Shown piece by piece: positions 6,001-58,762 of a stretch of DNA of 64,000 bases. Source of the stretch: an uncultured Clostridia bacterium (lineage in GTDB: Bacteria; Bacillota; Clostridia; Christensenellales; UBA1242); contig CATKXS010000003.1 in NCBI GenBank assembly GCA_949841045.1, positions 7,796 to 71,795 of the forward strand. The letters are read 5' to 3'. Positions within the stretch are counted from its first letter, which is position 1. Every line of letters begins with the position of its first letter. Position numbers and translations under genes: made by a program. Under the pieces are notes generated by a model. It searched no databases, was not told the origin of the DNA, and was given only the letters and a program-made list of their open reading frames with translations.

Positions 6001-9000
6001 GAATTTAAGTTTGTAACACTTGGCAAAGTTGTTGAATAATTTGTTCTAATTAAAGAATAAGCCATGTAGTTAAGTTGACCGCTTAAAGATATAACTTTAC
6101 TGTCAACCTTTCTTATTATGCCTTTATTAATTCCCGCAACACTACCTATGCTTCTTGTTGCTCTCGTAACATAAACATTATAAGAAACGTCTAAATAGTC
6201 GTTCATAAATAAAGTAATATGAGGTGCAAGCCCGCTATAAGAAAGCCTTCCATGCTGTGAAAGTTGAGCAGGACTTAAAGACCTAGTTGCAGAATTATCC
6301 GCCTCAAATAAAGTAAAATCTTGAATAATTTCACCATTATTTACACCAACAATTCCACCTAAATAACAGTTTCCTTCTACTATAATGTTTACATTTGATT
6401 TATTAATAACGGTGCCAACATTTATAAGACTACCATTATTTTCACCTGCTACAAGTCCAATATATGAGGTTTCTTCAATATTGAGGTCAAAATTACCTTC
6501 AAATTTTATATATTCAATATAAGCCCCTTGAGCAATTTTTGAGAATAATCCAAAGTATTTTTCACCTTCAATTGTCAAATTTGTATTGTTTGCAATTGAA
6601 ATGCCTGTAATAGACGCAAAATCAGTCACACCAATAATAGAACCACTAAGTTCCCCTAAAGGCAACTCGTTTAATATAGAAGAAACATCTATTGAAGTTT
6701 TTAGTCGATAATGAGCTGAAAGATTGTTTTTTATAAGAAGAAGGTCGTCTACATTGTTTATTGTAAATCTAAGTTTTTCACTTCCGTTTGCAAAAACTGT
6801 CTTAATAGAAATTGCTTTTTCATTGTATCCGCTACGCAAATTTCCATTTCCATCAAGCCAATCGCTTGCAACTATCAAAATTTCACCCTCAATCGTTTCA
6901 GTAAAACTTTCTGCAAATCTTATAAATTCATCATTGACCTTAAAGCTTATTTGAGTTTTTCCATCACTGACAACATAAGAAATAGAATCTTTATCAATCA
7001 TTTGGTATTCTTTGTTGTTCTCATCTACTATAGTTGCACCAGAAACAATTGCACGAAGTTCGGCGTTTGTTGCATCGTTATTTGTTGGGAATGCAATAAC
7101 GCTCTGCTCAGGTTTTAAAACTGAAAATTCAAATTCTGTAACTGGAGATTGTAAGCTTATTCTATCAACTTCGTTGTAGACGTTGATATTAATATTTATT
7201 GTAAAAGAATAAATTTGACCATACTGCATAACATGTGCAACCAAGGTTATTCTTGCACCATTTGTAAGATTATCAAATGCAGTGAAAACCATTTTTTCTG
7301 TATCAAAAGTACCATATGAGCCTATTGTATAAACATTGCTTTGATTTGGCGAATAATACATTTTATTAACATAAACGCCATTTCTAAGTAATGCTGATTC
7401 ACTTTCAAAATAGATAAATTCTTTTAAAAATCTGCTTGGGATAAAATTGTTGTTTTCAGGATTTTGGAATAAATATGCTTGGTCATTTTTTAATGTAACT
7501 TCAATTTCTGCCTGCCTAAGCTTATCAAAATATGTGTTGGAATAAACATTTATATAGTTTGCGCTGACATTTTCTTCATATTCTTCGACAAATCCGTCTC
7601 TAAGTTTATTTACCCTTATACCTTCAGCCAAATCATAAGTAACTAAATTAATTATGTAATCAATACTTATAGTATCACATACAAAGTTTTCTATTATATA
7701 ACCTTGTACACTAATTTTAATTTCGTCACTGCCATTATGTGAAGAATAAAATAGATAATTTCCATTTTCTTCAAGCTTCATTGATATATTTGAACTTTCA
7801 ATTAAAACATCAATGCTGTTTATTGCAGTTGAATTATTTTTTCCATTTGCAATTACTCTTAAATCGAAGTAGCTTCTACCATTTTTATTAATAAGATAAA
7901 TAAGGCTTTGATTTTCACCGTCCTCTTTTAATCTTATTGAATTATCCTCATTTGATGATTGAACGGTAAGAGAATTAAGTGCTTCTCTAACATTAATTGT
8001 AAACGTAGTACGCGTTCCATTATCAAGAGTGATAGTATAAGTTCCCGAGCCGTTGTCGATAGGCAACATCTTTATATTTAAATAATATTTGCCATCTATC
8101 AAATTAAACATATCGTTTTCATCATAATTAAAACGAACAACATCTTTACCAGATTCAAGAGCAAAAGACATGCTTGAGAATTGTGCGTCAGAATAAATGT
8201 TACTAAAAGTCTTTTCCCCACTAAATCTTTCTAGATAAATATTTTCTCTAAATTCCTCATTTTCAAATTTGAGAGCTGTTGCACCCTTGAGAATTTGATA
8301 TTTAATGTTAGTTTCAAGGCTGTCTTCTTGAATAACATTAAAATCCATTTTCACAGGTAAACTAGCAACTTCTGATGTTACTTCAGCATTTTCTCCACCT
8401 TTAATATAAACAGGTTCTCTTAGATTTGTTATTTGTACTGGACGATTTACATAAATATTGTTTAAATATTTAATTTGCAGATTTGTACCAGTTAAGTCAA
8501 GCACTAAATTATCATATTCAGCACCCTCAGGAATAACTGAAAAGTTGAATGCTTGCCAACCTGAATCATCAGAGGCGTAGTTATTATAAAAATTGTATAC
8601 TTTGTTATTTTGAGTAAAGTTGACATTATTAATGAGTAAATTAGTAGGTATAATTCTAATTTCAATAGGAACACTGAACGTATAATTAACGTTTTGGTCT
8701 TCACTATTTTCAAATCCGTCATAATAGAAATTTAAATCAAAGAAAGTTGAATTTGCACTTCCGCTACCGCAATTTACTTCTATATAATAAATTGTATTTT
8801 CGCCCGATTTTAAAGTGTTTAAAATCTTGCTGTTTGCAATATTATTATTTCTTGTTTTTGCTTTTAAATTTAATAGTTCATTTGTTTTAACTGTCACTTC
8901 TAGATAAGCAGTCAAGAAATTGGCTGTATAACCTACTAAAAGTGGATTATCTTTAATAGCTGCACTATAATTTGGAATTAAAGTTATTTTCCCAGATTTA

Positions 9001-9968: not shown

Positions 9969-10015
9969 TTTTCTCCTTTTTGTTAAAATTTACTTCAGTT
10001 AAACTATTACAAGAA

Positions 10016-10282: not shown

Positions 10283-12964
10283 TTACTTTTTCTTACGTTT
10301 TTCAATAATAGAATAAACATAAGGAAGAGGTCTTATTTGAACCATAGTTCTTGATGTAGGTGAAGTAATAATAAATGACTGACCAACAGACGCACTTACA
10401 ATACGATTTCTCTCCTCTTTATTGATACCGCCAGAGTTTTTATAAAGTTCAACAAGGTCGTTAACGTCATTTGGCGATAATGAGAATATGAGCGAATACT
10501 GACATGCGTTAATAACGGCGGTCGATTGTCTCTTAATTTCTTCAGAACCAACGAAGTCGTTGATATTCTGAGTAATAACAATCTGCATTCCACCATACTT
10601 ACGAATACGTTTAGCCATAGAAGTCATGAAGTTTAAGGCAATTGGATATTTAGGGTTAATGAAAATGTGAGCTTCATCAACGACTACGATAATCTTACGA
10701 TTTGTTCCATGAATATCGTTGTAGTCCTTGTTATTAATAACTTCACTTTCTATATACTTAAATACCAAAAGCATTTGAGCACTAGTAAGCATGTCGTTAT
10801 TACCTGCAATAAGAGATTGGAAGTTGAAGCAGACAAAGTTTTCGTTTGTTTCAATTGAAGTAGGGCCATTCCAAAGGTTGGCATTTCTTCCACCTTTTGC
10901 AAACTTTCTGATATAAGTTTGTGCAATTCTCAAATTATTTAATACGAAATCCTCTTTTGCTTCCTCAAGTTTTTCTTGAAGAAGTGCATATAAATCATCG
11001 AAAGTTGGATAATCTTCAGGTTTTAAATATTTTAAATCAGTTGTTTCGTCAATATTTTTTCTTTCATACATTTCAAGAATTAAAGTATTGATAACCTCGA
11101 ATGCATCAGAAGAGATACCTTGTAAGATTGTTCTTAAAAATTGTTCAAGGAATTGAAGGTGCTGATTGAAAGAATCGTCAGTTTTCTTTTTAACGGCCAC
11201 TTCACCCTCTTCTTCCACGCCTTTATTTTCATCATCGTCTTTATCTAGCGCTCTAATAACGTTGAATGGATTAATTATACCTTGCAATGATGAACCAACA
11301 TCAATTTGTTTTCCATGCAATTGGTCTGAAAGTTCTGAATATTCTTTTTCAGGGTCGCAAATGAAGATTTTGGTATTATCAGCAGCAAAGTTTGCAAGAA
11401 GTGTTTTTGTAGCGAAGGATTTGCCTGAACCTGATTTTCCAATAATCATCATATTAGAGTTTACGCGCTGTGCATCACGAGTGAAAAAGTCAATAAATAC
11501 TGGGTAAGCATTATCTCCGAGGTAGAATCCACCCTCATCTTGAAGTTCTGATGAAACAAATGGGAATACACCGGCAAGCGTATAAGTAGGTATACCTCTT
11601 TGAAGTTCTTTAATGTTATCTCTCATTGAGATACCAGAGCTGATAAAACCATCAATCTGTCTAGCAAAGAGTTCGGTAAACCTATAACCTCCCTGCTTAA
11701 GCATAGACTTAATTTCTTTACGAGCAGAATCTTCACATGTGATAAATGTGTTTATATCATAGAGTTGTTGGTTTGAAGTTTTAAGTTCGCTAAGAAGATT
11801 TCTAAGAGTGTCAAGGTGTGTCTGGATTTCAATTCTGGTACTACTCTTACCAGTCTTTGACATTTTTGTCTCCATATCCATAATAGCCTTATCAATCTTC
11901 TTTTCAGATTCATATTGTGGTGCTTTTTTAAATTTCATCACAACCTTTGTTTTGTCAAGAAGGAAGAATGAAGTTCCCCAAGCGTTTCCAACTTGAAGAG
12001 GATATTCATTTAAAGCATAAGTCCTATACCCTACACCATCAATTTTGTATTTAGCTGATGAAAATTTAATATTGTTTGGAGTAGCCCAATCAAGATAACC
12101 TGAGTATGGAACATTTTCAAGGTCACGTTCATTAAACTCTCTAGTGTAGTTGGCTTTAATAAATATTGCAAGGTCGCTTCCAACAAGACGTCTTGAAGAC
12201 ACTGGAGTAAGACATGAAGCGAGTGAATTTGCCATACCTGTTAAAGTATTATCAAGAGCGTCAAGGTCTTTGCCCATTACTACAAGATAGAAAAAGTCCT
12301 TATAAATCTTATCAGTTCTATTTTTGTTTTCAATGAAGTTTACACGTTCTTCAAAAATAGGTGCTCTCGCGTCAACCTCTTCTTGACTCATTTGTTTCTC
12401 ATACAATTGGTCAAGAAGTCTATCATATTTTTTGTTTTCTATGTATGCGTAATTATCAAGCACCATCGCCTTATTGATTTTAACAAGTTCGCAAACTTGG
12501 TTATCATCAAGTCTTCTTAGTGCATTTCCAAAACCAACGTCAATTACATTATTTTGACTGTATTCATTTAAAAGGTCAAAAAGAATTGGTTTAACTTCAA
12601 GTACCCCTGCATAATAACTACCATAAGAAATGAACTTATCCTCATAGATTGATTCAAAAGGAATAATCTCTTTCATATTTGGTTTTCCAGACTTAGGAGC
12701 TTTCGAATATTTTTTCTTTTGAAGGGAATATTTTGCAAGGTGCGTGAGCGTAACATAAAATCTATCACTGTCTGCAATTTTGAAAAATAGTGAGAGCCCT
12801 AATATAGCCCACACCATCGCAATCCAAATGTGACCAGGAAAGTTTGATGCAGCGAGCACGATAAGCACTGCAGCAACAACAAGTGCAATAACAAGGTCGA
12901 TACCTGTAAAGCCTCTAATAAATTCAAGCTTAACTTTAGTTCTTCTTGGAACAATTCTTACCAT
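10283..12964 (-). CDS. VirB4/TraE-family type IV secretion ATPase with a fused N-terminal two-TM PrgI/VirB3-like segment
   Basis: 893-aa ORF with an ATG start and a GAGG SD 5 nt upstream. Two N-terminal TM helices (GIDLVIALVVAAVLIVLAASNF and HIWIAMVWAILGLSLFF) follow a VPRRTKVKLEF motif typical of PrgI-like proteins. Walker A GKSGSGKS is at 11417-11440 (residues 509-516). Walker B VVVDEAH is at ~10667-10693. The overall layout matches Firmicute conjugation VirB4 homologues (Tn916 Orf16, TcpF, PrgJ). Confidence 0.8.
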   Translation of the reverse strand: MVRIVPRRTKVKLEFIRGFTGIDLVIALVVAAVLIVLAASNFPGHIWIAMVWAILGLSLFFKIADSDRFYVTLTHLAKYSLQKKKYSKAPKSGKPNMKEIIPFESIYEDKFISYGSYYAGVLEVKPILFDLLNEYSQNNVIDVGFGNALRRLDDNQVCELVKINKAMVLDNYAYIENKKYDRLLDQLYEKQMSQEEVDARAPIFEERVNFIENKNRTDKIYKDFFYLVVMGKDLDALDNTLTGMANSLASCLTPVSSRRLVGSDLAIFIKANYTREFNERDLENVPYSGYLDWATPNNIKFSSAKYKIDGVGYRTYALNEYPLQVGNAWGTSFFLLDKTKVVMKFKKAPQYESEKKIDKAIMDMETKMSKTGKSSTRIEIQTHLDTLRNLLSELKTSNQQLYDINTFITCEDSARKEIKSMLKQGGYRFTELFARQIDGFISSGISMRDNIKELQRGIPTYTLAGVFPFVSSELQDEGGFYLGDNAYPVFIDFFTRDAQRVNSNMMIIGKSGSGKSFATKTLLANFAADNTKIFICDPEKEYSELSDQLHGKQIDVGSSLQGIINPFNVIRALDKDDDENKGVEEEGEVAVKKKTDDSFNQHLQFLEQFLRTILQGISSDAFEVINTLILEMYERKNIDETTDLKYLKPEDYPTFDDLYALLQEKLEEAKEDFVLNNLRIAQTYIRKFAKGGRNANLWNGPTSIETNENFVCFNFQSLIAGNNDMLTSAQMLLVFKYIESEVINNKDYNDIHGTNRKIIVVVDEAHIFINPKYPIALNFMTSMAKRIRKYGGMQIVITQNINDFVGSEEIKRQSTAVINACQYSLIFSLSPNDVNDLVELYKNSGGINKEERNRIVSASVGQSFIITSPTSRTMVQIRPLPYVYSIIEKRKKK

Positions 12965-46512: not shown

Positions 46513-48519
46513 TTATATTTCTGTCACAAATTCATTATCTAACTGTTTTTGATTCAAATGCAACTTGTATTTATTATTTGATTTAAGAATATACTGCCCT
46601 CCACCTGCATCTGAATAGCCATTATATCCTCTATGTTTAGCTTTCGGCTCTGTTATAGGTTTTCCAAATCTTTCTCGAAGTTCTTTATTTACATCGTTAT
46701 AACCAGTCCCTGTTGTAACACTGTCAACCTCTATTCCTCTCTTTTTCATACCACTTATTATAGCTTCAGCCGATTTTTCTATAATATTCATAAGTGATTT
46801 CGAAGAAATACCTTTTTCATGATTTCTCATCTCAGCAATTATCTTATGTGGAATTTCAATATTGTCATAGCAAACAGTTTTTGTCTGTGGGTCATACCAA
46901 ATATAAGCCTGCCCGAGTATTCTTGTTTCGCCAGTAGATTTGCCTTTTTCATCTAGAATATTTTCCTCAAACACTAAAAAGCCTGCATTTGGATTGGTGT
47001 AGCCGTCATCTACGCAACTTTCCCCCACTCCTCCTATATGCTGACAGCAGTTTGTAATGTCACCAAGAACAAATCCTAGTGGGTCGTCTTTATCAAGAAT
47101 TCTAAAGTTTATGCCATTCTCGCTTTGAATTCTATCAGCTTCAATTATATAACTATTCTTAATTGTTTTTGCTTTATCATAGATTCTTTGAATTTGCTCG
47201 AATTGCTCTTGAGTATAGCCATACTTTCCAACAATTTTGGCCAGTTTTTCATTTCCTTCGTTTATATTGGTGTAATTAATCTCTCTCGAATGCATTGCAA
47301 CAAACTCTGGAGTAAGTAGTGAATTTTGAAAGTTACCATTAACAACGCGGTTTGGATAGTTTTTGAGTATATTTTCAAAATTATTATGAGCAATACAAAG
47401 ATAATCCCTAGTATAGCCATCATCGCCGTCAAAATTAAATTTCATAAAATCTCTATCGTTATGATAATATTTCATGAAGAACTTAGCAAATGTAGGGTTA
47501 AAAGGTCCATTTAATACAAGTTTAGAAAATCTTAAATGTATCTGACTACCAACTTGTTGTAAAGTTTTGTTTGGGTCTCGTGGTTTTGCAACATAATTTA
47601 AAATATAATCATATGCCTTCTCACTCTCGCCCTGATTTTTGGAAAAGCCACCAATTGCATAGTATATTTTCATAAGGTCAACAAGAGTGTTTGTTTTTTC
47701 GTTTCCTTCCAAAGTATCAAATTTGAGCGTTTTAACAAGTCTGCCCCAACGCTTATCGTTATTGTTAACAAAATAATCTTCTATACATTCGGTAGGAAAA
47801 GTTTTTAAAGTATATGTTGGTGGAACAAACTTTAATTTCCCCTGCTCTGCAAGTTCTCTCAATTTCAAATAATTATTTCTTAATTTTGAGGATTTTAAAA
47901 AATCCTCAGCTTCTTCCATGCTTATTTCAAATGCATTCCCCTCAAGGCTTTTGTCTTCTCCTTTTCTCAGTTCAATTGAACCCGATTTTGAAAGGTAATA
48001 AGTATACTCTTCTGCATTATCAAATATATTATAAAACGTAAATTTCCCATACGACAACCTATAACCATCTTCATATTCTGATTTTGTATTAAGTTTAATA
48101 GTTATTGATTCCAAATTCTTGCAACCAACAAATACATCGTGTCTTATTATTTTAACACTTGCTGGAATTACTATATTTTTTAGACTCGAACAATTTTTAA
48201 AAAAATATTCGCCAATCAAATCAATATTTTCTGGCAGTACTACATTTTGCAGATTTTCACATCCTTGAAATGTAAAAACACCTAGTTTTGTAATACTATT
48301 GGGAAAAACTACACTTCGCAGATTTGTAAGACCATCAAAAACGCTTACTGACAATTCTTCTACACCTTCAGGAATTACCAACTCCCTCAAATCGGTACAG
48401 TTAGCAAATGCACCAGGGTTAATATATTTTACATTTTCCCAAAATTTTTGAGGATTTTTAGTTAGAAAATCAAGGTCTTCATTTTTTACCGAACTTAATC
48501 CTCCATTACTTTTTTCCAT
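46513..48519 (-). CDS. BspA-type leucine-rich-repeat protein without a signal peptide, plus a large uncharacterised C-terminal region
   Basis: Repeats of about 23 aa: FANCTDLRELVIPEGV / FDGLTNLRSVVFPNSI / FQGCENLQNVVLPENI / FKNCSSLKNIVIPASV / FVGCKNLESITI. AAGGAGA SD. The C-terminal ~480 aa has no family I recognise. Confidence 0.7.
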   Translation of the reverse strand: MEKSNGGLSSVKNEDLDFLTKNPQKFWENVKYINPGAFANCTDLRELVIPEGVEELSVSVFDGLTNLRSVVFPNSITKLGVFTFQGCENLQNVVLPENIDLIGEYFFKNCSSLKNIVIPASVKIIRHDVFVGCKNLESITIKLNTKSEYEDGYRLSYGKFTFYNIFDNAEEYTYYLSKSGSIELRKGEDKSLEGNAFEISMEEAEDFLKSSKLRNNYLKLRELAEQGKLKFVPPTYTLKTFPTECIEDYFVNNNDKRWGRLVKTLKFDTLEGNEKTNTLVDLMKIYYAIGGFSKNQGESEKAYDYILNYVAKPRDPNKTLQQVGSQIHLRFSKLVLNGPFNPTFAKFFMKYYHNDRDFMKFNFDGDDGYTRDYLCIAHNNFENILKNYPNRVVNGNFQNSLLTPEFVAMHSREINYTNINEGNEKLAKIVGKYGYTQEQFEQIQRIYDKAKTIKNSYIIEADRIQSENGINFRILDKDDPLGFVLGDITNCCQHIGGVGESCVDDGYTNPNAGFLVFEENILDEKGKSTGETRILGQAYIWYDPQTKTVCYDNIEIPHKIIAEMRNHEKGISSKSLMNIIEKSAEAIISGMKKRGIEVDSVTTGTGYNDVNKELRERFGKPITEPKAKHRGYNGYSDAGGGQYILKSNNKYKLHLNQKQLDNEFVTEI

Positions 48520-48591
48520 GTAATTCTCCTTATATTAAGTATTCAACAATAGCTAACAACAGTCAATATAATTTTAGTTTTTGATTACTAC

Positions 48592-48622
48592 AAAAAACCA
48601 CCAAGTTTTCTAGTGGTTTTTT
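48592..48622 (-). terminator. Intrinsic terminator of leuS
   Basis: AAAACCAC...GTGGTTTT hairpin flanked by A- and T-runs. Confidence 0.75.
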
Positions 48623-48644
48623 AGTTAAACATTATTTTATGATT

Positions 48645-51047
48645 TTATTTTACAATTAAATTTACAAGTCTTGCAGGAACATAAATTTCTTTAACAATTT
48701 GTTTTCCGTCAAGATAAGATTTTAAAGTATCCGAAGTCTTAATCGTATTCAATATATTTTCTTGGCTGTCATCTGGGTTTATCATAACTCTTGCGACAAT
48801 CTTTGAATTTACTTGAACGGCAATTTCAACCTGCCCCGCCTTTAAATCTTCTTCTTTGTAAGTTGGCCATGAGTCATCTACTCTTCCGCCAAAGTCAAGC
48901 TCTTGCCATAATTCTTCAGCAGTATGTGGTGCAAAAGGACAAACAAGGCTTAAAAGCACTTTATAATCCTCTTCACTTACAACACTTGCTTTTTCAAGTG
49001 CAGTCGTAAGCACCATGATTTGTGAAATAGCAGTATTAAATTTCAAACCGTCAATGTCCTCACTAACCTTTTTAATACTTTGGGCCAAGATAGTCTTATT
49101 TTCGTCGCTCTTATCTTTTACCACACGGTCAGAAAGTGCAACAATACGATTAAGCAGTCTTTCGCAAGGCTTCATAGTATCTTCGCGCCAAGGTTTAGCC
49201 TCTACATAGTCGCCCATAAACATATGAGCAAGTCTTGTCACATCAGCACCATATTCTCTTACATATTTGAGAGGGTCAACAACATTTCCACGTGATTTAC
49301 TCATTTTAGAGCCGTCACTAGCAAGAATAATACCTTGTTGAACACGTCTATCAAATGGTTCAGGATTTAGAACGAAGCCATTATCATATAAGAACTTATG
49401 CCAAAATCTTGCATATAAAAGGTGTCTTGTAACGTGTTCACCGCCACCATTATAGAGGTCAACCTTATTCCAATATTTGAGTTTTTCAAGAGAAGCAAAC
49501 TCTTTGTCGTTATGTGGGTCAATGTATCTAAGCCAGTACCAGCTTGAACCAGCCCAGTTTGGCATAACATCTGTTTCACGCCTTGCCTTGCCTCCACAAT
49601 GAGGACAAGTTGTGTTTACCCAATCTTCAATAAGCGAAAGCGGGCTTTCACCGTCATCAGAAGGTTTATATTTATCAACCTTTGGAAGAGTTACTGGAAG
49701 CTCATCATCTGGCACAGGTACCCAGCCACATTTTTCACAATAAACAAGTGGAACAGGTTCTCCCCAATATCTTTGTCTCGAGAAAACCCAATCTCTCATC
49801 TTATATGTGTTGATTTTCTTGCCAAGTCCCTTCTTTTCAAGATATTCATTGAGTTTAACTTTTGCCTCTTCAACGGTAAGCCCGCTAAAGCTGTCAGAGT
49901 TAACAAGAGTGCAACCTTTTCCAAGATATTCAGTTTTTTCAAAAGCTTTTTCTGAAATGTCGCCACCAGAAATTACTTCAATAATTGCAAGTCCAGCAAC
50001 TTTAGCAAAATCATAATCACGTTGGTCATGACTTGGCACGCCCATTACAGCACCTGTTCCATACCCAGCAAGTACATAGTCACTGATATAAACAGGCACT
50101 TTTTTTCCGTTAACTGGATTGATTGCATAAATACCTTCAAGAAGGCAACCAGTCTTTTCTTTAAGCATTTGTGTACGCTCAAATTCACTTTTAGAGGAAG
50201 TTTTTAAAATATATTTTTCAACTTCGTCATAATTTTTAATTTTATCTTTTAATTTTTTAACAAGTTCATGCTCTGGAGCAAGTACAAAATAAGTTATACC
50301 AAAAATCGTTTCAATGCAAGTTGTGAAAATATCGAAAGTCTCACCGCTTTCAAGTTTGCAGTGAACAAGTGTTCCCTCGCTTTTGCCTATCCAGTTCTTT
50401 TGCATTATCTTAATATTTTCAAGATAATTTGTATCATCAAGCCCCTTAAGAAGTTTTTCAGCATACTCGCTCATTTTAAGCATCCATTGAGTTTTAGGCT
50501 TCTGCACTGTTGGAGTCCCACAACGTTCACAAACGCCACCCTCACTTTCTTCATTTGACAAGCCAGTTTTGCAATTTGGACACCAGTTTATATTTGCTGT
50601 AGCCTTATATGCCAAGCCTTTTTTATAAAATTGAAGGAAAATCCATTGTGTCCATTTATAATAATTTTCATCTGTAGTGTTTATCTCTCTTGACCAGTCA
50701 AAAGAAATGCCAAGACTCTTAATTTGGTTTTTAAAACTTGCAATGTTATCGCTTGTCGCCTTGATTGGAGAAATTCCATTTTTAATTGCATAATTTTCAG
50801 TAGGTAGACCAAAAGCGTCCCAACCCATAGGATAAAGCACATTGTATCCTTCTGCCCTTTTCTTTCTTGCAACAATATCCATGGCAATTTGACTTGGAGT
50901 ATGACCAACATGAAGTCCGCTTCCACTTGGATAAGGAAATTCAACCAAGATATAATACTTTGGTTTATCCGAAAAATCGACGGCTTTATAACGTCCTTCT
51001 TTATCCCATATTTCCTGCCATTTTTTCTCGTTTGATTTAAAGTCCAT
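48645..51047 (-). CDS. leuS: Leucine--tRNA ligase
   Basis: 800 aa with HVGH (HIGH-type) and KMSKS motifs and the CP1 editing region. GGAGGAAGG SD. Confidence 0.95.
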   Translation of the reverse strand: MDFKSNEKKWQEIWDKEGRYKAVDFSDKPKYYILVEFPYPSGSGLHVGHTPSQIAMDIVARKKRAEGYNVLYPMGWDAFGLPTENYAIKNGISPIKATSDNIASFKNQIKSLGISFDWSREINTTDENYYKWTQWIFLQFYKKGLAYKATANINWCPNCKTGLSNEESEGGVCERCGTPTVQKPKTQWMLKMSEYAEKLLKGLDDTNYLENIKIMQKNWIGKSEGTLVHCKLESGETFDIFTTCIETIFGITYFVLAPEHELVKKLKDKIKNYDEVEKYILKTSSKSEFERTQMLKEKTGCLLEGIYAINPVNGKKVPVYISDYVLAGYGTGAVMGVPSHDQRDYDFAKVAGLAIIEVISGGDISEKAFEKTEYLGKGCTLVNSDSFSGLTVEEAKVKLNEYLEKKGLGKKINTYKMRDWVFSRQRYWGEPVPLVYCEKCGWVPVPDDELPVTLPKVDKYKPSDDGESPLSLIEDWVNTTCPHCGGKARRETDVMPNWAGSSWYWLRYIDPHNDKEFASLEKLKYWNKVDLYNGGGEHVTRHLLYARFWHKFLYDNGFVLNPEPFDRRVQQGIILASDGSKMSKSRGNVVDPLKYVREYGADVTRLAHMFMGDYVEAKPWREDTMKPCERLLNRIVALSDRVVKDKSDENKTILAQSIKKVSEDIDGLKFNTAISQIMVLTTALEKASVVSEEDYKVLLSLVCPFAPHTAEELWQELDFGGRVDDSWPTYKEEDLKAGQVEIAVQVNSKIVARVMINPDDSQENILNTIKTSDTLKSYLDGKQIVKEIYVPARLVNLIVK

Positions 51048-51133
51048 GCCTTCCTCCGCTAATTATATTAAATCATATCAAATTTTTAATTAAAAGTCAA
51101 ACAAATAAATATAAAAGCCTACCAAATATGATG

Positions 51134-51167
51134 GCAAAAAATTTAGGCTGTAAAAATTCTACAGCCT
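51134..51167 (-). terminator. Intrinsic terminator of the transglutaminase-like gene
   Basis: AGGCTGTA 51145-51152 pairs with TACAGCCT 51160-51167, followed on the minus strand by AAATTTTTT. Confidence 0.75.
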
Positions 51168-51208
51168 AAAAGTTTTATAAACTTTTCTTAATATATTTTC
51201 AACCTAAA

Positions 51209-52816
51209 TTATTTTTCGCGGTCTACATAATTTACAATTTCATCATTAAGTTCTTCTAGTTCTAATTCTGCCAAATTTGGTTTTTTATAATAAATTTGTC
51301 CGCACACCAGTTTGTGAGCAAAATCAAATTGCTTATCAGTCCAACCTCGACTTCTTGCCAAAGCATAACATTTTGCCTTATTTTCTTCAAAGCCTTGCGC
51401 CATACCAACCGCTTTTAATGCTGGTGCCATAGAGGTATAATATCCTCTCCACCATGTCTTAATCATTTTTGGCTCATGCTTTGCATTCATAATCTTATCT
51501 CGTTCCTCAGCGATTCGATTTGCCTGTTCATCGCTTATTTCTTCAATATCAGCAAGATGTTTACCAAACTTATATTCAAGCTTCTCTTTATCGCTTTTAC
51601 TTGTAAATTCTTTCATCTTTTTAATATAAGCTTCTGCAATTTCCTCAACGCTATATTTAGACTTACTTAAATTTTTTAATGTTTCATCAGATAATATTGA
51701 TTCTTTATCTTGAAATTTTTTATAATCATAAAAATCATCTAATTCGTACAAGGTGTCATTAACAAGTGCCTTTATTAAATCTTCCATTTTGTGATAAGCT
51801 CTATGCGCCCTATAATGCTTTGTAACTTCATTTTGTTTTAATTTTAATTTTTTGATAGATGATTTTATCTCTTTTGTCATGCGTTTATAAAATTTCTTAT
51901 CATCAACAACATAGCCTTGAAAATTCTTCAAGAAATTGGCTTTACGCTCCTCAAGTTGTTTTTTCCTAAGCTTAAGTTCTTCCTTGCCTTTTATACTTGC
52001 AAAAAGGCGTTTCTTTGACTTATAGAGCTGCTCATCACTTAAATCTAAGTTATTGTCTTTATACATTTCTCTTGCCTGCGAAATAGACAAAAATGAATAA
52101 TAGTATTCTCTTCCGCTTTTATCGCCTTTATCTCTTCCCCATGTTGGCTCAGAAACAAAAAGGCCGTTTATATCGTACTTGGCATCATTTAAATAAACCA
52201 AGCATACCACATGCCCACCGCCACCTTTTGTGTTAACCATTTCTAAATAAGAGCATGGAATATCAAGTCTATTAAGAATGTGCTGAAGTAAAATTGAATA
52301 ACCTGCACATACGATTTTATCACCTGTAAGAATATGAATCATATGTCTTGAAAGACTGGAATTATCACCCTTCCTTTCTAATGCATAATCAAATTGTGTT
52401 ACAATTTCATAGGCATATAAAAACTTCTCGTAAGGCGTCAGTTCTCTACCGTCAACACGTGCATTTCTTATCTCGTTTACCCAATTATTAAGTTTTTTAG
52501 TGGCTTCAAGAACCTGGTCTATCTTGTAATAAGTGTTGCCTTTATTATAGATAACTGATGATTGATAACGACAGGTAAGACCATTTTCGCGAACATTTTT
52601 TAAAGCAATTTCAAATTTCTCTAATCGTTCTTCGTCAAGAACTTCATTCATATTATAATTATCACTATCATTGTATTTAACATCAATAACTCTTGAATAG
52701 CCTTTAATTCTATCTATAAGGTCTTTATCAACCTCTTCTCCACTGAAAAGTCTTATAAATTCATTAACTTTAAATTCAACATGACCATTGGCAATTTTAA
52801 GTTCAATTTGCCCCAT
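51209..52816 (-). CDS. Transglutaminase-like (papain-fold Cys-His) domain protein, no signal peptide
   Basis: The core VCAGYSILLQHILNRLDIPCSYL ... GGGHVVCLVYLND ... FVSEPTWG fits the transglutaminase-like C...H...D/E pattern. AGGAGG SD at 52822-52827. Confidence 0.6.
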   Translation of the reverse strand: MGQIELKIANGHVEFKVNEFIRLFSGEEVDKDLIDRIKGYSRVIDVKYNDSDNYNMNEVLDEERLEKFEIALKNVRENGLTCRYQSSVIYNKGNTYYKIDQVLEATKKLNNWVNEIRNARVDGRELTPYEKFLYAYEIVTQFDYALERKGDNSSLSRHMIHILTGDKIVCAGYSILLQHILNRLDIPCSYLEMVNTKGGGGHVVCLVYLNDAKYDINGLFVSEPTWGRDKGDKSGREYYYSFLSISQAREMYKDNNLDLSDEQLYKSKKRLFASIKGKEELKLRKKQLEERKANFLKNFQGYVVDDKKFYKRMTKEIKSSIKKLKLKQNEVTKHYRAHRAYHKMEDLIKALVNDTLYELDDFYDYKKFQDKESILSDETLKNLSKSKYSVEEIAEAYIKKMKEFTSKSDKEKLEYKFGKHLADIEEISDEQANRIAEERDKIMNAKHEPKMIKTWWRGYYTSMAPALKAVGMAQGFEENKAKCYALARSRGWTDKQFDFAHKLVCGQIYYKKPNLAELELEELNDEIVNYVDREK

Positions 52817-52833
52817 ATTCCCCTCCTAACTCT

Positions 52834-52860
52834 ATTGTAATCGGGGGGGGGATTTGTCAA
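52834..52860 (-). promoter_or_regulatory. Sigma-A-type promoter whose 15-nt spacer contains a C9 (plus-strand G9) homopolymer
   Basis: The minus strand reads TTGACA (52860-52855), aatCCCCCCCCCgat (52854-52840), TACAAT (52839-52834). The upstream gene ends in its own terminator, so this gene needs a promoter of its own. Confidence 0.55.
52843..52851. repeat. G9/C9 homopolymeric tract
   Basis: Nine consecutive G on the plus strand. It is the only G/C homopolymer of this length that I noticed in this AT-rich window. Confidence 0.95.
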
Positions 52861-52910
52861 GGTTTTTTCTAAAAAAAGTTAAATTTTTTAGAAATTTTAG
52901 ACTTTTCAAT

Positions 52911-52938
52911 AAAAAAAAGCCTATCTTTTGGATAGACT
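52911..52938 (-). terminator. Intrinsic terminator of the coiled-coil gene
   Basis: Minus-strand AGTCTATC-caaaa-GATAGGCT. It contains one U-G wobble that would be a C-A mismatch on the plus strand. It is followed by T8. Confidence 0.75.
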
Positions 52939-52942
52939 TTTA

Positions 52943-53773
52943 TTATTCAAGTTCTTCTTCATGGTTTTCAGGCTCAAAATTGAGTTTAGATTTAACCATT
53001 TGAATATCTCGACTACTCATAAGGTTAATAAAATCTTCAACAACCAGGTTTTTCTCTGCTTTCATTGCATTTACAGCATCTTCAAGTTCTTCTCTTGCAA
53101 GGATTGTATAATGATAAGGAGCAGAACATCTATCTTCACTATTTGTCTTTTCCTCTTCTTGTAAGATTTCTTTAATTGTATCTTCTATTATAGGATTTTC
53201 AATATTCTCAGCAATAACCTTTTTAACAAGCCCTCTTTCAATCTCAACCATTTGGCATTCAATTTGAATAGGGTTCACTCCACTCTCTTCCATCTCTTTT
53301 TCTAAATCTTTTCTTTTATTTAGCAATTTAAAAAAATCATGAGAGAAAGATGCTTTTTCTGTAATAAGCTCTTGAACTTTTTTAATTCTTGTCTTAAGTT
53401 CTTCAATCTCTTTTTTGTCTTTTGACGAAAGAATCTTGACTTTTTTAGTTTTCTCTTCTTTTTGTGCAAGCTTTTCTATTAATTCTTTACGGTCTTTTTC
53501 CCACTCACCTATTAGGTCTCTATAATGCCCACATAAATTCGACATGGTGTTTTCAGTGTTAATAATAGCCTTATAAAGTAGTTGCAATGAAACATTTATA
53601 TCTGTCATCAAAAGTTTTGAACTTTGAGGACTGCCATACAAATCATAAAGCTCCCAAACTTTATCTTTATTTGTTTCATATAAATGTTTTAAATTTTGAT
53701 ATTCTTTATTATTAGCTAATATAGGCTTTACATTATTTCTTATAAATCTAACAAAATTTGCACTTGTAGTCAT
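52943..53773 (-). CDS. Hypothetical coiled-coil protein, no signal peptide
   Basis: 276 aa, K/E-rich with heptad-like segments. GGAGG SD. Confidence 0.5.
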   Translation of the reverse strand: MTTSANFVRFIRNNVKPILANNKEYQNLKHLYETNKDKVWELYDLYGSPQSSKLLMTDINVSLQLLYKAIINTENTMSNLCGHYRDLIGEWEKDRKELIEKLAQKEEKTKKVKILSSKDKKEIEELKTRIKKVQELITEKASFSHDFFKLLNKRKDLEKEMEESGVNPIQIECQMVEIERGLVKKVIAENIENPIIEDTIKEILQEEEKTNSEDRCSAPYHYTILAREELEDAVNAMKAEKNLVVEDFINLMSSRDIQMVKSKLNFEPENHEEELE

Positions 53774-53796
53774 TACGCCTCCAAATATATATATTT

Positions 53797-53824
53797 ATTA
53801 TATCACATAAATATTTTAAGTCAA
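53797..53824 (-). promoter_or_regulatory. Sigma-A-type promoter of the coiled-coil gene
   Basis: Minus-strand TTGACT (53824-53819), a 16-nt spacer ending in TGa, then TATAAT (53802-53797). Confidence 0.6.
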
Positions 53825-53905
53825 TAGGCTTTTAAAACCCTTTTTAAAATAACTTCTATTTTAATAAACATTTATTAAAAAATCAAAAATTCTTTGTTAA
53901 AACCA

Positions 53906-53933
53906 TTGACAAAGGTTTAAATTTATGTATAAT
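53906..53933 (+). promoter_or_regulatory. Sigma-A-type promoter of the rplJL operon
   Basis: TTGACA at 53906-53911, a 16-nt spacer, then TATAAT at 53928-53933. Confidence 0.65.
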
Positions 53934-53939
53934 AATAGA

Positions 53940-54072
53940 GTTGAAATAAAATCTTATCCATAGACAGCAAGCGGATTTCCGTAAACACAGTTTGTGTGCT
54001 TGCCGAGGAAAAAGGTATATATAGGAAGTTTTTCTCTATGCTTTTTTCCGAAGGCATAGAGATTTTTATTTT
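53940..54072 (+). promoter_or_regulatory. Ribosomal protein L10 (rplJ) leader with a terminator/attenuator hairpin
   Basis: Structured ~130-nt 5' UTR between the promoter and rplJ. AGACAGCAAGCGG...CTTGCCGAGG pairing is followed by TCTCTATGC 54033-54041 pairing with GCATAGAGA 54054-54062, then TTTTTATTTT. Position and architecture fit the Firmicute L10 leader. I did not verify this against a covariance model. Confidence 0.55.
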
Positions 54073-54108
54073 AATTACACAATATTCATTAAAGGAGGAA
54101 AAGATTTC

Positions 54109-54624
54109 ATGGGTGCTAATTTAGAAGCAAAAAAACTTATTGTTGATGAAATCAAAGACAAGCTTTCAAGAGCAAAATCTGTGACTTTCGTTGATTATAA
54201 TGCACTTACTGTTGCTGAAGACATGGAAATGCGTAGAGAGTTCAAAAAGAACGGCGCTGAATACAAAGTCTACAAAAACAAATTATTGCTCCTTGCACTC
54301 AACGAACTTGGAATCAATGGTGCCGAAGAATTCTTACATGGCACTAGTGCGGTTGCTTTCAGTTATGATGATGAGGTAAGCGGTCCAAAAATTACCTGCG
54401 AAACAGCTGAGAAAACTAAGAAATTAACCGTAAAATTTGGTTTACTTAATGGTAATTTCGTTGAAAGCAAGGAAATTGAAGCTCTGGCAAAACTTCCAAG
54501 CAAAGAAGTTCTTATTGCTACTCTTCTTCGTACTCTCAATGCCCCTATTACTGGGCTTGCTAGAGTATCTATCGCCCCTGTTGAGGGTCTTGCAAGAGCA
54601 TTAAATGCTATTGCAACAAAATAA
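54109..54624 (+). CDS. rplJ: 50S ribosomal protein L10
   Basis: 171 aa with AGGAGG SD. Typical L10 sequence, directly upstream of rplL. Confidence 0.93.
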   Translation: MGANLEAKKLIVDEIKDKLSRAKSVTFVDYNALTVAEDMEMRREFKKNGAEYKVYKNKLLLLALNELGINGAEEFLHGTSAVAFSYDDEVSGPKITCETAEKTKKLTVKFGLLNGNFVESKEIEALAKLPSKEVLIATLLRTLNAPITGLARVSIAPVEGLARALNAIATK

Positions 54625-54702
54625 CACTCCTTGTAATAGTCAATTACATGGAAATATTAAATAAAAAAATGGGAAAAACCCAAATTTAGGAGGAAATTTA
54701 AA

Positions 54703-55074
54703 ATGGCTGATGTTAAAAAATTAGTTGAAGAAATTAAAACTATGACTGTTCTTGAAGTATCTGAACTTGTTAAAGAACTTGAAGAAACTTTTGGTGTAAG
54801 CGCTGCTGCTCCTGTAGCTGTTGCTGCTCCTGTAGCTGGTGCTCCAGCTGCTGCTGAAGAAAAATCTGAATTTACTGTAGAACTCACTGAAGCTGGTTCA
54901 AACAAAATTGCAGTTATCAAAGTTGTAAGAGAAATCACTGGACTTGGTCTTGGCGAAGCTAAGGCTTTAGTTGATGGCGCTCCAAAGGCTGTTAAAGAAA
55001 ACGTTCCAGCTGAAGAAGCTAAAGAAATTGAAGCTAAACTCAAAGAAGCTGGCGCAACTGTTAAACTTAAATAA
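54703..55074 (+). CDS. rplL: 50S ribosomal protein L7/L12
   Basis: 123 aa with an Ala-rich hinge and C-terminal [36 protein letters not shown]. Confidence 0.95.
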
Positions 55075-55100
55075 ATCAAATAAAAAAAGAATATTGTGTA

Positions 55101-55131
55101 AAAAAACTAGGACATTGCTCCTAGTTTTTTT
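55101..55131 (+). terminator. Intrinsic terminator of rplJL
   Basis: CTAGGA 55107-55112 pairs with TCCTAG 55119-55124, flanked by A6 and T7. Confidence 0.8.
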
Positions 55132-55224
55132 GTGTATGCATTATGCACTTTATATCATAAAATGTTTTTAAACTAAACATTTTTCTGTTACATGTGCCTT
55201 AGGCACTGTATTTTAAAACCTCTT

Positions 55225-55266
55225 ATAAAAAGACCATGGGATGTCCATGGTCTTTGTTGTTTTTTA
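55225..55266. terminator. Bidirectional intrinsic terminator (serves the ThyX-like gene on the minus strand)
   Basis: 11-bp stem AAAGACCATGG 55229-55239 pairing with CCATGGTCTTT 55245-55255, with T-rich tracts downstream on both strands. Confidence 0.75.
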
Positions 55267-55370
55267 TAATGATGCAAACTAAGTTTGCTCGCCAAATGTA
55301 AGGCTTGCCGGAACAAATAAAGTATTATAAAGTGGCCAAGCCACACGATAACCGCCAAACGTAAGGCTTG

Positions 55371-56750
55371 TTACACTTCACTTTCAAGATTTATACCATC
55401 AAGAAAACCACATGGCGCTTTGCAAGTATACCCTGCTTTACATCTTGCTCCACTTGCAACCTTTGTAAGTTTGTCTGCATATTTTTGAGCAACCTTGCGA
55501 AGGTCTTTATCTTCCAAAGTACGAGCTTCTTCGCTGAGTGCATCTCTATATTCTCTTGCTTGCATAAGAGTCAAATCTCTAATCTCTTTTTGAGCGCAAG
55601 CGCAAAGTCTTTCGTCTGTTTTTAAGATAAAGTCACCAAATGAACCTGCCTCGTTCACATTTAAAAGTGTACCTTGAGGTAAGAACTCTGAAACTGAAGC
55701 AATATCTCTAAGATAATCATTTTTAAGTTCTTCATTTGACCTGATAATTGGTGGAATATAGAAATCTTTAATCTTTCCAAAATCATTTACAAATCTAAGA
55801 TTGTCAATAGAAGAATTGATTGTTCTATGCCTTTGATTTTGAGCAAGACAAGCAATAGACATCTTATATACACCCTGATAATTTGAAGAATAGATTTTCT
55901 TAAGAATTGGGTCGCCAAATAAAGAGAAATTTCTATTCTTTCCGTCTGTGAGTTTTGCTGAATATAAATTCATATCTTTTGTCCAGTCTACAAACTCTTG
56001 CATTTCATCTCTTAAATTAGCATAGAAATTATTCTCTGGCTTAGCTATTTGCGCTTCCATCCAATGCGCAATATAATTAAGTTGTCTAAAGTTTGTTGAA
56101 TAAACCATGTTTGTATTAGTGAAAGCTGACACCATATATCTTGCATTTTCTTGAGCAAGTTTTCTTGCTTTCTTTCCTTCTGGGTCAAAGAATTTGTTAC
56201 TGCCGTCTGGATATAATTTCTTAATTTCTCTTTCGAAAATATCTACCCATTTAGAATAAAGGGCATTTTGTCTTGGTTCAATATCCTTCAATTTAGTATA
56301 TCTAGCTGATTTTTCACTTGTATTGTAGTCTTTTTCATTGTTTAAAACCATTGCAAGTGCTTTTGGAATACCAGAAATTTCAAGAGTTAAGAAAGAGTGA
56401 CCAAAAGTTGAATGGTGACCACTATTTTCAACTTGAGTTGCAATGCCAAGAATATTCTCAATAGGTTTGTTATTTAATTTTTCAAAAGTGTCTGGCATAT
56501 AACAAGTTGCCCCCATGAGACCGGCAACAACACGGTTAAATTCATAATCATATTCTTTTGGAATTCTACTGTCAAATTCAGTGGCAACCTTATCTATTAA
56601 TTTGTCCAAAAATCTTTGGTCTATGTAATACCCACCACCGTTTTCAACAATTTCAACTACAGCTTTCTTTAGACCTTTAACAATATCCTCTTTAGAAAGG
56701 CAACCTTTTTCACCTTTTAAAACAGTTTGCATTTTGATTTTAATATCCAT
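55371..56750 (-). CDS. thyX: Tandem-fused flavin-dependent thymidylate synthase (ThyX-like), two Thy1-type domains
   Basis: N-domain: SGHHSTFGHSFLTLEISG...NNEKDYNTSEKSARYTKL and ARYMVSAFTNTNMVYSTNFRQLNYI. C-domain: QRHRTINSSIDNLRF..DFYIPP...CACAQKEIRDL. Both align with the canonical ThyX pattern HGHxxxxEH...RHRxxxxxxxSxRY...FYIP...AQxEIR. Confidence 0.7.
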   Translation of the reverse strand: MDIKIKMQTVLKGEKGCLSKEDIVKGLKKAVVEIVENGGGYYIDQRFLDKLIDKVATEFDSRIPKEYDYEFNRVVAGLMGATCYMPDTFEKLNNKPIENILGIATQVENSGHHSTFGHSFLTLEISGIPKALAMVLNNEKDYNTSEKSARYTKLKDIEPRQNALYSKWVDIFEREIKKLYPDGSNKFFDPEGKKARKLAQENARYMVSAFTNTNMVYSTNFRQLNYIAHWMEAQIAKPENNFYANLRDEMQEFVDWTKDMNLYSAKLTDGKNRNFSLFGDPILKKIYSSNYQGVYKMSIACLAQNQRHRTINSSIDNLRFVNDFGKIKDFYIPPIIRSNEELKNDYLRDIASVSEFLPQGTLLNVNEAGSFGDFILKTDERLCACAQKEIRDLTLMQAREYRDALSEEARTLEDKDLRKVAQKYADKLTKVASGARCKAGYTCKAPCGFLDGINLESEV

Positions 56751-56875: not shown

Positions 56876-58735
56876 TTATTCATTCTCATTTTCTGGTTCA
56901 GCAAAGGTTTGGAGTTCTTCATAAACCAAAGCATTTTTAGTAATGAGTAAAGACTCTTCATTAACCTTTTTGAAGCATTTTGGTCTTTGTTTTGTAGGTG
57001 TTTCCTTAACTTCCACCTCTTCTACAACTTCTTCAGCCTCTTTTGTTTCTGGAGCTTCTTCGATTTTTTCATCGACTTCTTCTGTTTTGACGTCCACGCG
57101 ATTTTTGTAATCATCAATTACTTGCATGATTGCCTTTGCGTCTTTGAGTTTCAAAACATTCATAACCATATCTTCAATGGCGCCCTCTCTGTCTGGACCA
57201 TCAAAATCAATATCTACATATCCGAAATGGTTTACAACTTCATCTAATAATACTTTAAGTACATCTGCATTTCTTGCATCATCAACGAAAGAAAGAATTG
57301 TTGGCTCACCCCTGAAGTTTGAATGATTCAAGAAATCTTCAATGTTTTCATGGTCTAAACTTAAGAAAAGTGTTTTGATAGCATCTGCATAATCTTCGTT
57401 ATTATCGCTCCCATAGTAAATATATTTAAGAGCATTGTCGCCATTTTCATCAATAGCGGTTGGGTCAAATTTACCATTAACTACAAGTTTACCAAGCATA
57501 TCAAAATTCTTTGTTTCGACAAGTCTTGCAAAAGTATCATGTGGATTTGGTGCATTCAAATCAATATTTGGACTATTGATAAGTTTTTCAAAGCAGTACT
57601 CGTCAGCAACTGTTGCAGCATAGAGAAGTGCATTATTAGTAGCCCCAGAAGCATTTATGTCAAGCCCTTTGTGAGCTAAAAGCATATCAAAGATTTCTTT
57701 GCTTCCCTCTTTACCCTCTTTCACACTATCAATTGCATACATTAAAGCATTTTTCATTTCAACTTTATACTTACCAAGCTCGTTATTAACAGCAAAAGCA
57801 TTAACATCTACATTTTTAGCTAAAAGTGATTTAACAAGGCTTACGTCACCCTCTTTTACTGCAAGCATAAGAAGTGTTTCGTCGTTTTCACCAGCTAAGT
57901 CATAATTTACATCATTACGCTTTAAAAGTCTGTTGAAAAGAGTCTTATCCTCAAGTTTATATAATTCGGTTAAAATACTTCTGCCATTTTCATCTATTCT
58001 ATTTACATCATAATCAGGTCTGTTTAAAAGAATCTTTGCTTTTGCGATAGCTTCTTCGTTACCCTCTTCAATATCTTTTAAGTTGCATAAAATAACATCT
58101 TTTCCAGCATTAACATCTATATCTTCACGAGCTAAAAGTTTTTTAAAGTCTGTCAAATCTGCATAATTTAAAGGAGCAAAGCCTTTATTGTTTGTTTTGT
58201 TTACGTCAATATTTTTATGGTTTAATATTAAATCGAAAGCCTCATGGTCTCGAATATCAGCAGCTATACTGAGTGCAGTATTACCCTCATCATTAACTAA
58301 ATTAACATCAAGCCCATCTTTATCTAAAATCATGCTTAAAATTTCAGGGTCTTTAGAAACGCAAACTTGATATATTAATGCCGAACCAAATTTATTACAA
58401 TGATTCACATTAAAATCTCTTCTGGTCCATTGTGCTTTTAAGATAGCTTTATACTTATCATAATCGTCAGTACCTTTTGCCCCAACAGTTTGAACAATAA
58501 GAGATTTTATTGGAGTAACTCTAATTGAATTTTCAAAATTCATATCAATTTTTCTATTCTTAAAACATGCCTTCATTATAGCAAATTGTTTATTTTCAAT
58601 AGCCCACATAAGAAGGTTGTTATTTTTGTCATCTACTGGCAAGTTAATTTCATCAACTTCAATTGAAGCAAGTTTCAAAAGAGATTTATATTTTTTCTTT
58701 TCAATAGCCTTAGCAACTTTTGCTGTGTATTCCAT
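56876..58735 (-). CDS. Ankyrin-repeat protein, no signal peptide, acidic C-terminal tail
   Basis: Multiple ANK-like units, e.g. GNTALSIAADIRDHEAFDLILNHKNIDVN and ETLLMLAVKEGDVSLVKSLLAKNVDVNA. Start placed at ATG 58735 after GGAGGTG, not at the track GTG at 58741. Confidence 0.75.
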   Translation of the reverse strand: MEYTAKVAKAIEKKKYKSLLKLASIEVDEINLPVDDKNNNLLMWAIENKQFAIMKACFKNRKIDMNFENSIRVTPIKSLIVQTVGAKGTDDYDKYKAILKAQWTRRDFNVNHCNKFGSALIYQVCVSKDPEILSMILDKDGLDVNLVNDEGNTALSIAADIRDHEAFDLILNHKNIDVNKTNNKGFAPLNYADLTDFKKLLAREDIDVNAGKDVILCNLKDIEEGNEEAIAKAKILLNRPDYDVNRIDENGRSILTELYKLEDKTLFNRLLKRNDVNYDLAGENDETLLMLAVKEGDVSLVKSLLAKNVDVNAFAVNNELGKYKVEMKNALMYAIDSVKEGKEGSKEIFDMLLAHKGLDINASGATNNALLYAATVADEYCFEKLINSPNIDLNAPNPHDTFARLVETKNFDMLGKLVVNGKFDPTAIDENGDNALKYIYYGSDNNEDYADAIKTLFLSLDHENIEDFLNHSNFRGEPTILSFVDDARNADVLKVLLDEVVNHFGYVDIDFDGPDREGAIEDMVMNVLKLKDAKAIMQVIDDYKNRVDVKTEEVDEKIEEAPETKEAEEVVEEVEVKETPTKQRPKCFKKVNEESLLITKNALVYEELQTFAEPENENE

Positions 58736-58762
58736 AATCACACCTCCACATCATATATGAAA

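Follow-up and report, generated by a model that had tools for sequence, protein, structure and literature searches.

A nine-cytosine tract in the promoter spacer of a transglutaminase-like gene from an uncultured gut Clostridia bacterium: a candidate slippage-driven switch

Introduction

In Neisseria meningitidis, the porA and fetA promoters carry a G/C homopolymer strictly between −35 and −10 elements of the sigma-70 type. For porA, tracts of G11, G10, and G9 reportedly gave high, medium, and no expression, respectively, in work of van der Ende from 1995. The tracts of porA, fetA, and opc have been placed between the −10 and −35 elements (PMC2791445), and the length of a porA-type tract sets the length of the spacer, for which 17 nt is optimal (PMC2791445; PMC7864442). 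In N. meningitidis opc, transcription is graded by the length of a promoter poly-C tract (PMC2791445, PMC7864442). In Treponema pallidum, a poly-G tract is located in the spacer of TP0126, with optimal transcription at 17 nt, and the tract of tprL is mostly G9 in all strains, with minorities of G7-G11 (PMC7864442). The poly-G/C tracts of Campylobacter jejuni have a modal length of nine; G8 is biased toward insertion and G11 toward deletion (PMC3401435).

The tract described here is a run of nine C (nine G on the plus strand, termed C9 below) in the promoter of a gene for a 535-aa transglutaminase-like protein. It was studied in its window, i.e. the whole 64,000-base stretch of DNA (33% GC) that was analyzed. 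Classical phase-variable genomes carry many SSR contingency loci, and phase variation in commensal Clostridia is otherwise known mainly from invertible DNA. The architecture of this candidate is that of porA, fetA, and TP0126, and the mechanism is not a new one; the host and the cytoplasmic target would be new.

The three tract lengths of porA are the same numbers that C11, C10, and C9 would give here. The setting is different: porA encodes a surface porin on which immune selection acts, in a Gram-negative pathogen with dozens of SSR loci in its genome, whereas the present host is an uncultured gut Clostridia bacterium, the product is transglutaminase-like and apparently cytoplasmic, there is one tract in 64 kb, and its length is C9 in both strains. 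An analogy to Neisseria had been drawn in the initial annotation; the porA architecture is indeed the same, but the parallel to opc is looser, since the tract of opc overlaps the −35 region (PMC7864442), making it a less exact analogue of a spacer tract. The two treponemal loci likewise have their poly-G between −35 and −10, and the modal G9 of tprL matches the C9 found here; because that length is modal in all strains, a tract may switch and still show the same consensus length in different strains. They differ in being outer-membrane protein genes, the variation of which was shown by fragment-length analysis and for which reporter data exist. Campylobacter jejuni, which is not known to have MutS/MutL mismatch repair, has ca. 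29 tracts per genome that are mostly intragenic (translational frameshift), in contrast to the single promoter tract of the window. It is similar in being AT-rich (ca. 30% GC), with G/C runs otherwise rare and hypermutable tracts that are modally nine (PMC3401435).

Results and Discussion

Promoter anatomy

The following elements were located at the 5′ end of the 535-aa gene:

52855-52860, minus strand: −35 hexamer TTGACA, 6/6 consensus, aligned with the TTGACA/TTGATA of the orthologous promoters
52843-52851, minus strand: C9 homopolymer (G9 on the plus strand), within the 15-nt spacer 52840-52854
52834-52839, minus strand: −10 hexamer TACAAT, 5/6 consensus (TATAAT in L001 and L004, TACAAT in L011; these loci are listed below)
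52822-52827, minus strand: Shine-Dalgarno sequence AGGAGG, 5 nt 5′ of the ATG, with a layout as in the orthologues
51209-52816, minus strand: 535-aa gene, the N-terminal ca. 270 aa of which have a transglutaminase-like cysteine-protease fold

Read on the minus strand, TTGACA (52860-52855) is preceded by ...agaaaaaacc and followed by aat, CCCCCCCCC (52851-52843), gat, and TACAAT (52839-52834). From there, agagttAGGAGGggaat leads to the ATG at 52816, the order being agagtt AGGAGG ggaat ATG. The hexamers together match the consensus at 11 of 12 positions, and the C9 homopolymer, which exceeds the ca. 7 nt taken as the minimum for a tract of the porA/fetA/TP0126 type, lies wholly between the −35 and −10 elements of a sigma-70-type promoter at 52860-52834. 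This was the central observation of the initial annotation, and it was reproduced at the same coordinates; the distance from the −10 box to the ATG, given there as 18 nt, was counted as 17 nt. The 15-nt spacer falls outside the canonical 16-18 nt of sigma-A/sigma-70 promoters. Allowing one mismatch at most, the pattern TTGACA-N15-TACAAT has a single site in the window. Transcription would start at ca. 52827/52826, leaving a leader of about 11 nt.

The consensus promoter scanner was restricted to spacers of 16-18 nt, and the C9 promoter was absent from its list. In the 200 nt upstream of the 535-aa gene, no other promoter with a match of 10/12 or better and a 16-18-nt spacer was found. Registers shifted to a 16-17-nt spacing (CCTTGA/CTTGAC with ACAATA/CAATAG) were rejected on direct reading for their poor hexamer matches.

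Comparison with orthologous and neighboring promoters

Among 5.8 billion clusters, the 535-aa protein had only two clear orthologues, P0002 (47% identity) and P0003 (44%). Both are encoded in the same synteny (rplJ/rplL divergent, the gene itself, then DUF421 and leuS), and their hosts are mouse-gut and other Clostridia/Eubacteriales MAGs. The corresponding promoters, along with that of a 30% relative, were read as follows:

L001, 47% orthologue: TTGACA-17 nt-TATAAT, −10 to ATG 22 nt
L004, 44% orthologue: TTGATA-17 nt-TATAAT, −10 to ATG 17 nt
L011, 30% relative from a rabbit MAG: TTGATT-17 nt-TGaTACAAT, −10 to ATG 15 nt

None of the three has a homopolymer in its spacer. In the orthologues the Shine-Dalgarno sequence is AGAGGA, located 15-22 nt downstream of the −10 box. 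When the promoters were aligned with MAFFT, the window and the two orthologues coincided in their −35, −10, and Shine-Dalgarno boxes, the window showing a 2-nt gap inside the C run. Since TTGAyA-17 nt-TAyAAT stands 15-22 nt before the ATG in three loci that are orthologous or related, TTGACA/TACAAT is very probably a functional sigma-A-type promoter of the 535-aa gene; its earlier assignment to this downstream gene agrees with the alignment of all three boxes.

The strong gene-proximal promoters of the window have spacers of 16-18 nt (mode 17), and 15 nt is found only in the C9 promoter. Spacers of 16-17 nt had earlier been noted for neighboring promoters and were read so here. The ancestral spacing is 17 nt, and the 15-nt spacer with C9 is derived and sub-optimal. 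By simple arithmetic, C10 gives a spacer of 16 nt and C11 one of 17 nt, exactly the ancestral length. The earlier view that 15 nt is short, and that one or two more C would reach the optimum, fits both the 17 nt of the orthologues and the 16-18 nt of the window, from which an expression optimum near 17 nt would be expected.

It had also been cautioned that the leader would be very short. This concern falls away, given that the −10 element is 21-27 nt from the start codon in the genes starting at 45375, 51047 (leuS), 53773, 56750 (thyX-like), and 58741 (ankyrin), and 15-22 nt from it in the orthologous loci.

Terminators, inverted repeat, and flanking genes

The promoter is set in the following surroundings:

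51142-51170, minus strand: strong intrinsic terminator after the 535-aa gene, a 13-pair stem followed by TTTTTT
52866-52876 and 52884-52894: perfect 11-nt AT-rich inverted repeat, TTTCTAAAAAA / TTTTTTAGAAA, arms 7 nt apart
52915-52941, minus strand: intrinsic terminator of the upstream 276-aa gene (terminator scan and fold)
52943-53773, minus strand: orphan 276-aa gene, Glu/Lys-rich, between the L10 leader and the C9 promoter
53940-54077: L10 leader (Rfam RF00557), divergent, upstream of the 276-aa gene

With terminators on both sides, the 535-aa gene is monocistronic and requires a promoter of its own. The terminator of the upstream gene, previously placed at 52911-52938 and found here at 52941-52915 (minus strand), keeps read-through transcription away from the C9 promoter. 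The inverted repeat (52866-52894) had been described with arms of 10 bp; the arms proved to be perfect over 11 nt. It lies between this terminator and the −35 box, stopping 6 nt upstream of the latter, and is a candidate operator or second hairpin. It is lineage-specific, being missing upstream of the orthologous promoters.

The 276-aa gene has a promoter with an extended −10 (TTGACT-16-TGnTATAAT at 53824-53797). Just two sequences of its product are known among ca. 15 billion proteins, and defence-system, phage, and NCBIfam profiles gave no match to it. At the orthologous loci it is absent, and the L10 leader region is immediately followed by the transglutaminase-like gene. The 276-aa gene has the look of an insertion particular to this lineage, with which the terminator and the inverted repeat also arrived. 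Past the L10 leader are rplJ and rplL in divergent orientation, and leuS is downstream of the 535-aa gene.

These surroundings also bear on whether the C run has a role unconnected with spacing, either with its 3′ end as part of a sigma-D/sigma-28-like −10 core (cCCGATta) or as an anti-Shine-Dalgarno element in read-through transcripts. A CCGAT core is indeed present at 52845-52841, and in the MFE fold the C run pairs with GGAGGGG/GGGG segments (the Shine-Dalgarno/start region being AGGAGGGG, AUGGGG). On direct reading, no TAAA-type −35 element was found at the required distance from the core, and the fold energy was no better than that of dinucleotide shuffles (z = +0.58). A strong terminator, moreover, separates the upstream gene from the tract, and both sigma-A boxes are perfect and have conserved counterparts in the orthologues. 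Such roles are thus judged highly improbable.

Proposed switch and the rarity of G/C runs

The best-supported mechanism starts from a housekeeping-sigma (sigma-A/sigma-70-type) promoter that drives a monocistronic gene for a transglutaminase-like cysteine protease. The ancestral 17-nt spacer has been replaced in this lineage by aat-C9-gat, of 15 nt. At this length the −35 and −10 elements are out of phase, with ca. 2 bp too little between them, and the allele now present would be a weak or OFF promoter; low activity at 15 nt would be expected because sigma-70-type promoters in general depend on spacer length, and by analogy to porA and TP0126 (PMC2791445, PMC7864442). Nine C/G is long enough for slipped-strand mispairing at replication, and the tract may change its length at a useful rate. 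Adding one or two C (C10, 16 nt; C11, 17 nt) would raise transcription stepwise, and a loss would lower it again. In effect, expression would be switched reversibly and heritably, in the manner of porA and TP0126. A probability of about 0.45 was assigned to the C9 spacer being such a slippage-driven promoter-spacer switch. A fuller version is offered tentatively and is, if anything, somewhat doubtful: in animal-gut Clostridia, a cytoplasmic cysteine protease would be switched by slippage, with the population resting at C9 (OFF or low) and rare C10/C11 variants being ON.

The composition of the window provides a first measure of how unusual the tract is. The run had earlier been called conspicuous in AT-rich DNA, and in the 64,000 bases it is the sole G or C run of 6 nt or more; the next-longest are six C5 runs. 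Under a first-order Markov model, G/C runs of at least 9 nt are expected at 0.017 per 64 kb, or ca. 0.5 per 2-Mb genome, so a single such run per genome is not impossible on composition alone. For runs of at least 6 nt, ca. 2.7 are expected per window, and none was found besides the C9 tract. What stands out is where C9 lies: exactly between the hexamers of a promoter that matches the consensus at 11/12 positions, in a sequence where G/C runs are otherwise depleted.

The main competing explanation is that the promoter is fixed and deliberately weak: a stable, lineage-specific C9 would hold the spacer at 15 nt for constitutive low expression, which may depend on DNA relaxation/supercoiling or on a factor at the adjacent inverted repeat, and changes in length would be rare and purged. 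This is conceivable but on the whole doubtful. Since G/C runs of at least 6 nt are depleted (no others against ca. 2.7 expected), the maintenance of C9 exactly in the spacer needs a reason, and hexamer mismatches would be a far simpler way to a weak promoter. A run of nine G/C is, in addition, slippage-prone in every organism tested (for slippage rates of G/C tracts, see the Campylobacter work cited in the Introduction, PMC3401435). In its favor, there is just one such tract in 64 kb, and the lineage-specific, perfect inverted repeat near the −35 box could bind a regulator. The solitary tract also weighs against the switch: no further SSR with the character of a contingency locus was found in the 64-kb window. 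Some 70 kb of related loci had none. Slippage in this presumably mismatch-repair-proficient member of the Clostridia may, furthermore, be far below that in Campylobacter, Neisseria, and Treponema.

Tract length in a second strain

A second copy of the promoter was reached only through P0014, the second member of the 90% cluster of the 276-aa orphan protein. The copy is on a 1252-bp Logan contig from SRR32020728 (L013) that spans window positions 53816 to 52565, promoter included. It is ca. 99.5% identical to the window over 1.25 kb, with substitutions at 53465, 53216, 53194, 52926, and 52784 and, as the sole indel, a 1-base deletion in the T3 run at 52894 (position 922 of the contig). These five substitutions and one indel mark it as a distinct strain. 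The deletion falls at the outer end of the inverted repeat, the perfect arms of which are 10 nt long in this strain instead of 11. At the promoter, the contig and the window are identical in the −35 box, the C9 tract, the −10 box, and the Shine-Dalgarno sequence, and the nearby A8 and T7 runs are unchanged. Over the first 84 codons of the 535-aa ORF, there is one synonymous change between the two strains.

Other routes to a copy from the same species were also tried. Look-ups with the exact sequences of the 535-aa and 276-aa proteins returned no conspecific copy; a DNA pattern with a variable gap had no match in the genome-contig collection, and one for the downstream flank had none in the metagenome-contig collection. 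Protein-guided scans for a conspecific locus returned distant orthologues only. A pattern for the L10 gene was likewise without a match in the genome-contig collection, which indicates that the species is not in that collection. Two contigs found by means of the exact L10 protein, L007 (ERR3473665) and L008 (SRR32020745), are 100% and 99.9% identical, respectively, to the rplJ-rplL region (53914-55107), and both end ca. 1 kb short of the tract.

The tract is therefore C9 in 2/2 consensus sequences (the window and the Logan contig; n = 2). The initial annotation had named invariance of the tract as a test of its proposal; the length is the same in both strains, but this result comes from only two consensus sequences. 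Against a switch, the tract is unaltered despite five substitutions and one indel elsewhere in the same 1.25 kb, and the Logan contig runs uninterrupted through it. The identical C9 slightly weakens the switch reading without refuting it, because both sequences are consensus sequences, tprL is mostly G9, and the C. jejuni tracts are modally nine. In the proposal of phase variation, the promoter logic is strengthened by the comparative data (17-nt spacers in the relatives, C9 within the spacer here); heterogeneity of length, which the proposal predicts, was not found in the two sequences. The same comparison favors a fixed weak promoter, in that C9 and the boxes are identical in strains that differ at 6 other positions per 1.25 kb, including the indel in the T3 run; yet two consensus sequences cannot show stability.

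The agreement of the two strains is also pertinent to a more trivial explanation, namely that the true tract is C10 or C11, collapsed in sequencing or assembly, and that the promoter is ordinary. Several sequencing platforms are prone to error in homopolymers of at least 9 nt, and C11 would give the ancestral 17 nt exactly. However, nine C were obtained in two independent assemblies from different samples and pipelines (the NCBI MAG and Logan SRR32020728), and this concordance makes a miscount unlikely. Systematic indel error is likewise improbable in view of the long ORFs without frameshifts (one of at least 3329 codons) and the intact A/T runs of 8-9 in genes. Altogether, a miscount is considered very unlikely. 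A poly-G sequencing artefact or a mis-join was rejected as well: the run is internal, is only 9 nt long, and was reproduced in the independent assembly.

The 535-aa product

The assignment of the gene product as transglutaminase-like, made in the initial annotation, was examined at the levels of profile, alignment, and fold. Against Pfam PF01841 (Transglut_core), the protein scored 18.1 bits (E 0.0033, profile positions 5-101 of 108), which is below the gathering cut-off of 23 bits; the distant homologue P0009 clears that threshold at 36.4 bits. In an alignment of 11 homologous sequences, C170, H202, and D211 are invariant. An AlphaFold2 model had a mean pLDDT of 64, with residues 1-270 mostly at 70-90 and a helical C-terminal half modelled with low confidence. 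The top Foldseek matches in the PDB all have the transglutaminase-like fold, with S. pyogenes TglA first (9crn, E 8.5e-5), followed by LapG, microbial TGases, PeiP/PeiW, and TG2. The protein thus combines the conserved catalytic Cys/His/Asp with the core fold of the transglutaminase-like superfamily, and a transglutaminase-like product at the fold level is supported by the model, as had been proposed, with the Pfam match remaining sub-threshold. Defence, phage, and NCBIfam profile libraries gave no match to the protein; a PDB sequence search with the 535-aa and 276-aa proteins gave none either, and nothing relevant was found in the literature on S. pyogenes TglA.

No signal peptide or hydrophobic N-terminus was detected in the 535-aa protein, in line with the earlier remark on the signal peptide, and the protein is therefore probably cytoplasmic. 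This location is easily accommodated by a fixed weak promoter, and it counts against a switch, the product being neither a surface antigen nor a restriction-modification enzyme or glycosyltransferase. The gene must be expressed at some time, because the intact ORF, the conserved catalytic residues, and the one synonymous change indicate that it is maintained by selection.

Implications

Should the tract act as a slippage-driven switch, a mechanism known mainly from a few mucosal pathogens (Neisseria, Haemophilus, Campylobacter, Treponema, and mycoplasmas) would extend to commensal gut Clostridia that are uncultured, and SSR promoter control would act on an intracellular enzyme instead of a surface antigen. 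To our knowledge, as far as a limited literature search extends, the locus would rank among the first SSR promoter contingency loci to be reported from commensal Clostridia. The tract would then offer a simple marker, countable in reads, for the heterogeneity of populations in metagenomes, and switching would suggest a cost-benefit trade-off of the transglutaminase-like protein, e.g. in a role related to stress, phage, or differentiation. If there is no switching, the locus is an unusually built weak promoter of local interest only.

Other features of the window

The gene at 34555 also belongs to those with a consensus −10 element 21-27 nt from the start codon, and many of these elements are of the extended TG type. 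Such spacing corresponds to leaders of ca. 14-20 nt, and very short 5′ UTRs seem usual in this organism and its relatives. For leuS (48645-51047, minus strand), a promoter-like site lies 24 nt from the ATG (region 51047-51140); no T-box leader was detected by Rfam in 48000-56000, which is unusual for a Firmicutes aminoacyl-tRNA synthetase gene. The same species is present in at least three other public samples (ERR3473665, SRR32020745, and SRR32020728).

At the left end of the window, a stop-free frame of at least 3329 codons (3-9989, minus strand) runs off the edge; it would encode a giant protein, for which Pfam gave no match at E 0.001 or better. Several genes on the minus strand lend a flavor of host association or conjugation to this 33% GC Clostridia MAG. 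They encode a TraG-like P-loop ATPase (10283-12964), a BspA-type leucine-rich-repeat protein with weak similarity to the HupY/LrrG adhesins (46513-48519), and a 621-aa ankyrin-repeat protein (56876-58741). Finally, the gene at 55371-56750 (minus strand) encodes a 459-aa protein with two matched stretches of the Thy1 (ThyX) domain; it is ca. twice the usual length of ThyX, and its orthologue at L001 has 465 aa.
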